In this document: piece after piece, positions 42,294 to 44,819 of the stretch | How positions within the stretch are numbered: position 1 is the stretch's first letter | Layout: the number at the start of each line of letters is the position of its first letter | IMG/VR virus record: IMGVR_UViG_2565956713_000001 | Length of the DNA: 64,000 nucleotides | Source: a virus | Lineage: Duplodnaviria > Heunggongvirae > Uroviricota > Caudoviricetes | Direction: 5' to 3' (one strand) | Translations under genes and position numbers: made by a program | The notes under the pieces: model-generated | The model's input: the letters and a program-made list of their open reading frames with translations, nothing else | Databases searched by the model: none | What the model was told of the DNA's origin: nothing

Positions 42294-42923
42294 ATGAACA
42301 TACCACCCAGGGCGACTAGGACTGTTTTTTGTGTCGGTAGCGGTCCGTCACTCACTCGTGAGGACTGTGCTGCTATAGAAAAAACTGGCTGTTCAATCAT
42401 CGCGGTTAACAATTCCTGGCAGATGTTCGATGACATTTATGCCTTATACGCCGGTGATTTGTCATGGTGGAAGCAATACGGATCCACCATACCGGGAGGG
42501 AAATTCCGCAAAGTGACAGCCAACCTGGCGGCGGCGAAATCATTTTCGTTGGAGTACAGGCGATATTGTGGACCGGCGGAAGGGGTAAATAGCGGCGCGC
42601 AGGCTATCAGTCTGGCTGCTGAATCAGGGGCTGAAGTAGTTGTATTAGTCGGCTATGACTGTTCTCTGCAAAACGGCCTTCATTGGCATGGCGCGCACCC
42701 TCAAGCCCTACGGAATCCAACGCAGGTGTCTATTTCAAAATGGCAACAGCAGTTCCTGGATACCCGCAAAAAACACGCAGATTTACATATTTTGAATGCA
42801 AGTAGGAGCAGTGCAATTCAATGTTTCCCAAGAATAAATTTAGAGGCAGTGATCGCGTTATTATCGTCGGCAGTGGCCCAAGCGCCGCAAACTTTGTTGC
42901 GCCGCGCGGAGTGCCGATTATAG
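42294..42923 (+). CDS. DUF115 (MptE/Maf-like) domain protein, copy 1
   Basis: Internal Met start of ORF 42261..42923; VFCVGSGPSL...IIAVNNSW...VVLVGYDCS pattern. Confidence 0.4.
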   Translation: MNIPPRATRTVFCVGSGPSLTREDCAAIEKTGCSIIAVNNSWQMFDDIYALYAGDLSWWKQYGSTIPGGKFRKVTANLAAAKSFSLEYRRYCGPAEGVNSGAQAISLAAESGAEVVVLVGYDCSLQNGLHWHGAHPQALRNPTQVSISKWQQQFLDTRKKHADLHILNASRSSAIQCFPRINLEAVIALLSSAVAQAPQTLLRRAECRL

Positions 42924-43447
42924 CGGTCAATGGGGCCATCGACTGGCTGAACCGCGCTTCTTATTTTTTCACACTTGATCCATCGCCAGACAATATGCGG
43001 CGCGTTGGTCGTGGCCGCCGTCGCCGTGGTGTTTGTTATTGCATGGCACTACCCGATGTTAAAGAACGTGAAGTCAGAGACGGCGTTCTGTGCTTCCGTC
43101 GTGTGGCTGAACGTGGCATGGAGCCAAAAAATACGAATTCTCCCGAGTGGTGGGCGTGGCGCTGGTCCGCACATTTCGGACTTTGCGAAGATGAGAATGA
43201 AATTGCCAGCGGCAATAGTGCATATGGTGCTCTGAACCTGGCTTTCCATATCGGATTCAAACATGTCGCCCTGGTGGGCGTTGACGCTACACAAGAACCA
43301 CGCGTTCACTCCGGCGGCACGCCAAAAAATCTAAGTCACCTGCCTTTGTTATTCCAGTCTGCGCGTGAACGGATTGACGTTGTTTCATGCGGGAAAATGG
43401 GAGGTATTCCGCAGATGACTCTTAAAGAATGGCTGAAGAATACATGA
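42821..43447 (+). CDS. DUF115 (MptE/Maf-like) domain protein, copy 2
   Basis: 208 aa paralog ([13 protein letters not shown]...[11 protein letters not shown]...VALVGVDAT); start overlaps copy 1. Confidence 0.4.
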
Positions 43448-44121
43448 TGGCACCCACAATTTATCACCGTATCGACGGTACCAAATACAGGAATGTCTGG
43501 GTTGTTGGTGATCTGCATGGTTGCTACACCAGACTGATGTCCGAACTCCATCGTGTGGATTTTGACCCGGCGCAGGATTTACTGATATCGGTCGGCGACC
43601 TTATCGATCGCGGTACTGAAAATGTCGAATGTCTGGAACTATTGCAGATGCCCTGGTTCAGGGCAGTGATGGGGAACCATGAGCGGCTGATGATTGATGC
43701 GTTAAGTCCAGATGGCAACGTGAATAACTGGCTAATGAATGGCGGACAATGGTTCTTCATGCTGGACACTGATCAGGAAATATTAGCCTGGACGCTGGTG
43801 GAGCTGGTAAAGCGTCTGCCCTATATCATTGAGTTGAACACCGGGCAAGAAACTATCGTTATAGCCCATGCCGACTATCCGGATAATGAATACCAATTCG
43901 GTAAGGAGGTACCGCTTTTCAACGTTGTCTGGGCGCGCGAGCGTATCAGTGATTCGATGGATGATATTGGTGGCGAAATTTCGGGCGCAGATCGTTTTAT
44001 CTTTGGTCACACTCCGGTGAAAAGCCCGAAGACATTCTGGAATCAGCAGTATATCGACACTGGTGCCGTATTTTGCGGAAACCTGACATTGATGAAAGTG
44101 AAAGGTGATGGTGCAGCATGA
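43429..44121 (+). CDS. Ser/Thr protein phosphatase (lambda-PP-type metallophosphatase)
   Basis: GDLHGC, GDLIDRG and GNHE metallophosphoesterase motifs; 230 aa. Confidence 0.8.
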
Positions 44122-44819
44122 AGATTGCTTTAGTTCTTCGCTCTGGTGGTGACTATAACGCTTCCGATGTGCAGTGGCTGGTTAATCAACTGCCAAAAGA
44201 CTATGAAATTATTTGCCTGACAGACCTGAAGTGTTTACATGTACCTGGCGTCAAAGTTATCCCATTGATCAACCAGTGGCAAAAGTGCCGTGGCTGGTGG
44301 GCGAAAATCGAGTTGTTCCGACCGGATATAACCGATGATCTGTTCTATCTGGATTTGGACACGGTTATTGCCGGTGATATACGCCCAATCCTAGAGCATC
44401 CACCAACCAGCTTCACCATGCTTAGGGATTTTTACCATCCACAATATCGTGGCAGCGGTGCCCTGTGGATACCAAATAGTGTTAAAGCGCATATCTGGAG
44501 TTCATTCTGGCAAGATCCGGAAGGTTGGATTTCTCGTTGTGTCACTACTGAGTGCTGGGGTGACCAGGGGTTCTTACGAAAGGTTATGGGCGATGATACA
44601 CCAGCATTTCAGGATCTGTATCCAGGATGGTTTGTAAGTTACAAGGCCGATGTTGTGGAACCTGGTTCAAAATATGCGAGCGCGCGTTACTCCAGGGGGA
44701 ATGGGGCATTACCAAAAGACTGCCGAATAATCTTTTTCCACGGCAAACCGCGACCTCGCGAAGTGTCAGAGGATTGGCTTCCCCTTATCAGCTCATTTTT
44801 TGAGCGAGAATCAGAATAA
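44118..44819 (+). CDS. glycosyltransferase-like protein (GT-A DxD-type, tentative)
   Basis: 233 aa, translationally coupled to the phosphatase; [12 protein letters not shown] motif. Confidence 0.3.

Follow-up and report, generated by a model that had tools for sequence, protein, structure and literature searches.

Bacteriophage P1 is among the most-used phages in genetics, and four of its adjoining genes, pmgO, pmgP, ppp and pmgQ, have stood for twenty years under the placeholder "putative morphogenetic function". The question raised by this locus is what the four genes encode and on what their products act. We take it up in a 64,000-nucleotide stretch of viral DNA (IMG/VR record IMGVR_UViG_2565956713_000001; below, the window), which belongs to a P1-type phage with 98-99% identity to P1 and P7. 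Over positions 42000-45200, Punavirus P1 isolates and RCS47 match it at 99.3% identity, and the reference genomes of P1 and P7 at 98.3-98.4%. An earlier note, made from the letters alone, had singled out a cluster of four open reading frames (ORFs) at 42294-44819; the cluster was correctly placed, and its members are exactly pmgO, pmgP, ppp and pmgQ of the P1 records (hdmB, hdmC, ppp and hdmD in the P7 record). We find that PmgO, PmgP and PmgQ are a conserved, mobile three-gene cassette, described here for the first time, that recurs in unrelated phages. Because fold, motifs, synteny and gene fusions all support it, we regard a functionally coupled glycosylation cassette, with Ppp outside its core, as likely.

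The old annotation ("putative morphogenetic function" or "morphogenetic protein") is not supported, since knockouts of these genes plate normally and the paper on the P1 virion proteome mentions not one of them in its main text or tables. A mutant set that includes in-frame deletions of the four genes plates normally (PMC9024508), and plating was likewise normal after knockdown of pmgO, pmgP, ppp and pmgQ by CRISPR interference (CRISPRi; PMC10695390). On laboratory E. coli plaque formation requires none of the four genes, and the earlier note's doubt about morphogenesis was justified in the sense that none of them is an essential morphogenetic gene. The glycosyltransferase labels are not new, as RefSeq and PHROGs already carry "alpha-2,3-sialyltransferase" for pmgO, "glycosyltransferase" for pmgQ and "NinI-like phosphatase" for ppp. 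In the literature we found no paper proposing a function for these genes, and nothing relevant on DUF115 or MptE in phages; one "DUF115" match was really DUF1156.

Two Maf-like proteins, a GT8-like enzyme and a phosphatase

The first two genes encode a pair of small proteins, PmgO (42294..42923 on the + strand, with an alternative ORF start at 42261), a DUF115/MptE-like protein and putative Maf-like glycosyltransferase subunit, and PmgP (42821..43447, +). Against the MptE-like/DUF115 family PF01973 they score 23.6 and 21.0 bits, respectively, both below the gathering threshold of 34.6; relatives pass it (P0051 with 44.6 bits, P0337 with 44.1), and many homologs have a precomputed PF01973 match. 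Both have the Rossmann-like fold common to Maf, MptE and glycosyltransferase (GT) family GT42, with its N-terminal GxGPS loop. A BLASTP comparison of the two proteins is limited to the GSGPS...IIAVN stretch (E 0.003), but when the family alignments are compared by hhalign, with the PmgO+PmgP fusion protein P0051 left out, the match extends over 163 columns at a probability of 98% and an E value of 1.4e-13. Judged by these alignments, PmgO and PmgP are distant paralogs, which agrees with the paralogous DUF115 pair of the earlier note.

The families differ in their conserved motifs, which are GSGPSL, AVN, NSG, GYDCS and HWHGxH in PmgO, and GSGPS, AVNGA, TLDPS, SPEWWxWRW, GNSAYGA, GVDAT and LSHLPLLF in PmgP. 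PmgP is the most conserved member of the cassette, and its family, not a large one, comprises 539 clusters at 50% identity. At residues 120-135 of PmgO (window ~42651-42698) stands GYDCS-x5-HWHGxH, invariant or nearly so in the family and missing from PmgP; it could be a metal site or a leaving-group-binding site, with D122, C123, S124, H130, H132 and H135 as its residues, and H130 falls, by offset, at the position of Tyr162 of Cst-II.

It is from Campylobacter Cst-I/Cst-II (GT42) that the sialyltransferase label in PHROGs and RefSeq derives, and we conclude that the label over-reads a fold-level match. The likeness to Cst-I/Cst-II has sequence E values of 0.12-1, and the region of the catalytic His188 could not be aligned. 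The PmgO profile matches Cst-II in the PDB weakly (E 0.12-0.5), with the two nucleotide-binding (cytidine monophosphate [CMP]-binding) segments alone aligning; the single PmgO sequence gives chance-level matches only among PDB sequences, and the PmgP profile gives no PDB matches. Moreover, E. coli K-12 is not known to make CMP-sialic acid, and a literal sialyltransferase is therefore unlikely for P1; no genes for CMP-sialic acid synthesis lie near any cassette examined. The Maf flagellin glycosyltransferases (PF01973/DUF115; structure 5mu5) are proteins of ~630 amino acids whose flanking domains are thought to bind substrate, whereas PmgO and PmgP are bare domains of ~200 amino acids, occur as a paralogous pair and stay below the Pfam threshold. 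A third relative in the same superfamily is WaaZ, the Kdo (3-deoxy-D-manno-octulosonic acid) III transferase of the E. coli and Salmonella lipopolysaccharide (LPS) core (TIGR04437, GT73), whose donor, CMP-Kdo, is present in all hosts; the cassette differs from it in context, lying in phage late operons rather than waa clusters. On homology and structure prediction, then, PmgO and PmgP are paralogous putative nucleotide-sugar enzymes of the Maf/GT42/WaaZ superfamily, and since they are fused to one another in some phages they probably act as a pair.

PmgQ (44118..44819, +) resembles the GT8 enzymes: again by homology and structure prediction, it is metal-dependent, carries a DxD motif and is probably a retaining hexosyltransferase; the earlier note's DxD glycosyltransferase-like gene has thus been upheld. 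It has a GT-A fold, an invariant DxD (D79-L-D81) and a C-terminal His-containing motif for metal and uridine diphosphate (UDP), and further motifs SG(x)M, GDQ and FHGxPRPW. When the profile of the PmgQ family is aligned to E. coli WaaJ (E 2.9e-4) or WaaO, the DxD, SG, DQ and HGxxRPW motifs fall in register; no alignment was obtained with WaaB, a GT4 control. Compared with GT8 enzymes (glycogenin, LgtC, GlyE, the Skp1 alpha-galactosyltransferase, WaaO/WaaJ), PmgQ is ~40-100 residues shorter and 13-16% identical. No Pfam family, PF01501 included, matches it at E<=1, NCBIfam holds none, and the single sequence finds only chance-level matches among PDB sequences. In PHROGs it is a separate family, phrog_1962, almost exclusively adjoining PmgP.

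The fourth gene, ppp (43429..44121, +), encodes a lambda-type Ser/Thr metallophosphatase, as had been read from the letters: Ppp scores 59.2 bits against PF00149 (E 1e-15; cut-off 21.5), its translation has the motifs GDxHG, GDxxDRG and GNHE, and it is a full-length ortholog of the lambda phosphatase 1g5b (E 5.3e-94), with 64% identity to the lambda enzyme according to the P1 record. Since the 1g5b alignment begins at residue 11, the true start is suggested to lie in the ATGATG at 43444-43449, probably at 43444 or 43447. The lambda counterpart, NinI, is encoded in the nin region, whereas ppp stands inside a glycosyltransferase operon.

A cassette shared by unrelated phages

We scanned ORFs with family hidden Markov models in ~35 non-identical loci, taken from IMG/VR, GTDB genomes and public assemblies. 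Where the contig allows, PmgP and PmgQ occur together in all ~35, and PmgO is present as well in most. The genome scan used strict patterns and yielded 16 loci, so the host range is a lower bound; the named hosts are all alpha-, beta- or gamma-Proteobacteria. The three proteins are also found joined in single chains: PmgO with PmgP (P0051), PmgP with PmgQ in both orders (P+Q in P0299 and P0371, Q+P in P0388), PmgQ and PmgP with a class I methyltransferase (P0349), and a methyltransferase with PmgP (P0390). In BFVD, phage proteins of 685-700 amino acids labelled MptE-like also hold a PmgQ-like domain. The P7 record remarks, in addition, on a likeness of orf7 of Pseudomonas phage D3 to PmgO.

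Between PmgP and PmgQ there is a variable slot, filled by a class I S-adenosylmethionine methyltransferase (9 loci), an additional GT-A protein (7 loci; the L003 member matches Pfam Nucleotid_trans weakly), an FkbM methyltransferase (3 loci), a GT2-like protein (2 loci) or, in P1, Ppp. These accessory enzymes are of the kind that extend and O-methylate glycans. The slot is also where a module of all four genes, as the earlier note had it, has to be judged. Ppp might work with the transferases, dephosphorylating a phospho-sugar or phospho-protein intermediate or regulating the target, and its gene is translationally coupled on both sides and sits where other phages keep tailoring enzymes. However, ppp-bearing loci are limited to P1-like elements (L102, L105-107, L110-111, L177-179), non-P1 cassettes all lack Ppp, none of the fusions includes it, and it is a close ortholog of a free-standing lambda phosphatase, so that we hold a four-gene module to be improbable. 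Because other P1-like elements and phage-plasmids do without ppp (L098, L101, L103, L108 and L109, where pmgP abuts pmgQ), Ppp is best read as a lineage-specific passenger copy of a common lambdoid phosphatase in the variable slot and not as a core member. What stood of the proposed modification module is the module itself, with three genes instead of four: PmgO, PmgP and PmgQ co-occur and fuse, and Ppp belongs only to a subset of P1-like elements.

One might also take PmgO and PmgP for pyrophosphokinases of the MptE or thiamine-pyrophosphokinase type, with PmgQ and the methyltransferases processing a small molecule into a soluble metabolite or a modified cofactor; we give this little credence.

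In phage genomes the cassette keeps company with late genes. In 12 loci an HK97-type major capsid gene precedes it, with 19-671 bp between that gene's stop codon and the start of the cassette, and the head-tail connector genes follow; in L090 and L125 it is interleaved with the connector genes. It lies 3' of the portal gene in a P2-like prophage, 3' of the lysis cassette in an SU10-like contig, and, in two lambdoid prophages, after the antiterminator gene Q in one and between the lysis genes and terminase in the other. All these positions are transcribed late; the cassette forms part of late structural and head-gene operons, to whose genes it is translationally coupled. Glycosyltransferase genes and structural genes are co-located in the 12 HK97-type loci and the P2-like prophages, but not in P1. 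In the HK97-type contig L125 (6721-8004, +) the gene between PmgO and PmgP encodes a head completion protein (Phage_HCP, residues 3-105) with a Ser/Thr/Gly-rich C-terminal extension of ~320 amino acids, and it is conceivable that this extension is a glycosylation substrate.

Copies also occur outside phages. In five Pseudescherichia/Enterobacteriaceae genomes the three genes are not collinear and are interleaved with genes for a 1178-amino-acid inverse autotransporter (IAT_beta and seven Big_1 domains) and three more Big_1 proteins (one of 999 amino acids with Big_1 and RCC1, and two Big_1 proteins of 494 and 329 amino acids). The island was delimited in Enterobacteriaceae UBA7338 (L171, 1-16549), and L169, L173, L174 and L175 from Pseudescherichia have the same layout; it is chromosomal and apparently non-phage, with no phage genes around these copies in 16.5 kb, and it looks like a dedicated adhesin-glycosylation locus. 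In Serratia plymuthica, PmgO adjoins two Big_1 proteins. Type V adhesins are found in P1-like phage-plasmids too: a classical autotransporter of 1455 amino acids directly past pmgQ/pmgR (L101, 4404-8771, -), and an inverse autotransporter ~3 kb downstream of the cassette in L046, L124 and L136 (at ~13.1-16.1 kb). Their nearness to the cassette in these elements may reflect a mere cargo hot spot.

What the enzymes act on

Phage glycosyltransferases classically modify DNA, and the late expression of the cassette coincides with DNA packaging. Nucleic acids had been offered by the earlier note as one of two targets of modification; hypermodification of DNA or RNA, with base glycosylation as an antirestriction device, we now consider the least likely reading of all, indeed very improbable. 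Neither in P1 nor in the other phages examined does a hydroxymethyl-pyrimidine or deazapurine pathway adjoin the cassette; the accessory methyltransferases are of small-molecule or sugar type and not of DNA-methyltransferase families; and the chromosomal copies flank adhesin genes. Plating on restricting hosts, which had been suggested as a check, is available from published work, and in the mutant set that includes the single deletions antirestriction is unchanged on EcoK, EcoA and EcoB hosts (PMC9024508).

The reading that we favour is that PmgO, PmgP and PmgQ form a cytoplasmic glycosylation cassette with a protein acceptor, and that ppp encodes an unrelated phosphatase in the variable slot; we put its probability at roughly 0.45. 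The three enzymes together would build a short glycan from host nucleotide sugars, methyl-capped in some phages. The acceptor in phages would be a virion protein made late in infection, and in the Pseudescherichia chromosomes it would be the neighbouring inverse autotransporter and Big_1 adhesins. Universal host nucleotide sugars are the expected donors, as no donor-synthesis genes accompany the cassette; for E. coli K-12 our guesses would be that the Maf/WaaZ-like pair uses CMP-Kdo and PmgQ a UDP-hexose. The lambda-type phosphatase gene would have landed in the slot in part of the P1 lineage.

Four considerations lead us to favour a protein acceptor. In structure, both enzyme types come closest to glycosyltransferases that act on proteins (Maf, glycogenin, the Skp1 alpha-galactosyltransferase, GlyE and the PBCV-1 capsid enzyme A64R); head-gene operons enclose the cassette and are translationally coupled with it; the non-phage copies sit among secreted adhesin genes; and phage-encoded glycosylation of virions has a precedent in mycobacteriophages. 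For Che8 gp110, Corndog gp38 and Myrna, the work of Freeman et al. (2023), as summarized in PMC12363180, is reported to show that cytoplasmic glycosyltransferases of the phages decorate capsid and tail-tube proteins, as demonstrated by mass spectrometry, and are dispensable for growth. This is the only precedent for a protein acceptor of the kind proposed, and it comes from phages of another host phylum.

Several observations weigh against this reading. No glycan on a P1 virion protein is reported in the literature, and our searches there for glycosylated virions among Gram-negative phages were likewise negative. In P1 the cassette does not adjoin the capsid gene, and the sites that follow Q and the lysis genes are slots for cargo in general. 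Where a capsid gene precedes the cassette, its product lacks the sort of C-terminal extension that is glycosylated in mycobacteriophages. PmgP retains >50% identity across phages with unrelated capsids, and a conserved host substrate therefore fits it better than fast-evolving virion proteins would. A role linked to LPS or Kdo would also fit with named hosts that are all Proteobacteria, and GT8, GT42-like, WaaZ and GT25 (L159) enzymes are the classic set for core extension of LPS and lipooligosaccharide (LOS).

These last points lead to the main rival, in which the cassette remodels the LPS/LOS core or a lipid-linked glycan, with PmgO and PmgP acting like WaaZ or the Cst sialyltransferases and PmgQ like WaaO/WaaJ. 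The receptor of P1 is a core glucose. An altered lipid A-core at the inner membrane would mask the receptor, giving superinfection exclusion or keeping progeny off debris. WaaZ is itself a sub-threshold member of PF01973 (E 7e-7) and the sole NCBIfam family matched repeatedly by PmgP members (9/34 at E<=1, best E 0.0059), and the fusion protein P0051 has a precomputed "faint" match to PF27901 (WaaZ_KDO_III). These similarities remain far below the family cut-off, however (11.9 bits, E 0.11, for TIGR04437 as against 200), and hhalign of the PmgO and PmgP profiles with a single WaaZ sequence returned a probability of 9%, too weak to use. The alignment of the PmgQ profile with WaaJ and WaaO, motifs in register, speaks for the same role, as do a GT25 LPS-type gene adjoining the cassette in L159 and the high conservation of PmgP in a Proteobacteria-only distribution, as would be expected if the substrate were conserved Kdo/lipid A; the insert SPEWWxWRW, rich in Trp, might lie at the membrane interface. 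What makes us regard LPS remodelling as unlikely on balance is context: the cassette stands in late structural operons, whereas prophage genes that modify LPS typically occupy lysogenic-conversion positions; LPS produced at a late stage of lytic growth could hardly replace what is already at the surface; and the chromosomal copies lie among adhesin genes rather than LPS genes.

Glycosylation of a protein acceptor may be carried further, to the broader proposal that tailed phages of Proteobacteria, P1 included, glycosylate their own virion proteins by means of a portable Maf-like/GT8-like cassette and host sugars, and that enterobacterial chromosomes have borrowed the cassette for their inverse-autotransporter adhesins. 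We offer this only tentatively, as an idea that is more doubtful than a protein acceptor as such.

The P1 operon and wider implications

In P1 the operon lies between the tail genes and pmgR/pmgS and has its own C1-controlled promoter. Promoter and operators were placed by transfer from the annotated P1 record (coordinate in locus L001 + 36000 = window coordinate). A predicted sigma-70 promoter, PpmgN, with the C1 repressor operator Oppp (Op83), lies 5' of the operon at 42065..42120 (+; annotation transfer and sequence), and the late promoter LPpmgL is annotated further upstream. Since the promoter is C1-repressed and the operon lies downstream of LPpmgL, the operon is expected to be on during lytic growth. 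A single operon comprises pmgN, pmgO, pmgP, ppp and pmgQ, and the translational coupling that had been noted is seen in its junctions: pmgO and pmgP overlap by 103 nucleotides, pmgP and ppp meet in ATGATG, and ppp and pmgQ in ATGA. At the operon end are the annotated C1 operators OpmgRa (44821-44837) and OpmgRb (44870-44886) and, between them, a terminator-like hairpin recognized by sequence and RNA folding (stem 44846-44856 / 44863-44873, followed by a T run), with an 11-bp stem, -13.4 kcal/mol and a z score of -5.5. It was not reported by a simple rule-based terminator scan. Since a run of A precedes the hairpin at 44838-44882 and a run of T follows it, it may terminate transcription in both directions. 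For the six operon proteins PADLOC defence-system models gave 0 matches.

The first gene, pmgN (42164..42319, +; P1 annotation), is a small acidic ORF whose product has phmmer matches in P1-like loci only and fits phrog_2350 (function unknown). It is not homologous to the small proteins encoded 3' of the capsid gene in HK97-type loci, and there is therefore no fourth conserved component of the cassette. Plating falls to 1.4e-2 when CRISPRi is directed at pmgN, although phages deleted for pmgN or for any of the genes that follow it in the operon are viable, a discrepancy remarked on by the authors themselves (PMC10695390).

Other genes of the neighbourhood are of interest beside the cassette. 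The dbn product (window 35327-36325, +) has sub-threshold matches to GT-B families (Glycos_transf_1, E 3.5e-5), by which P1 would carry a fourth glycosyltransferase-like gene, ~6 kb upstream of the cassette; phage deleted for dbn is viable. Downstream, pap (46457-46963, +) encodes a HAD-type PNKP phosphatase domain (E 5.5e-12), and upstream, pmgM (41518-42096, +) a sub-threshold VRR-NUC nuclease domain with PHROG matches to a Holliday-junction resolvase family. Both Pap and PmgM look non-morphogenetic, despite the "pmg" naming of the region.

If the enzymes remodel LPS instead of a protein, the cassette would be a new receptor-masking device. If the proposal of portable virion and adhesin glycosylation is true, virion glycosylation would extend from the mycobacteriophages to the phages of Gram-negative bacteria, in which it would be the first such system, and the chromosomal copies would represent a new bacterial protein O-glycosylation system. 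Glycosylated virions would bear on the interactions of phages with antibodies and with mucus, and on the engineering of P1-derived delivery vectors and of phage-plasmids, which are common in clinical Enterobacteriaceae.

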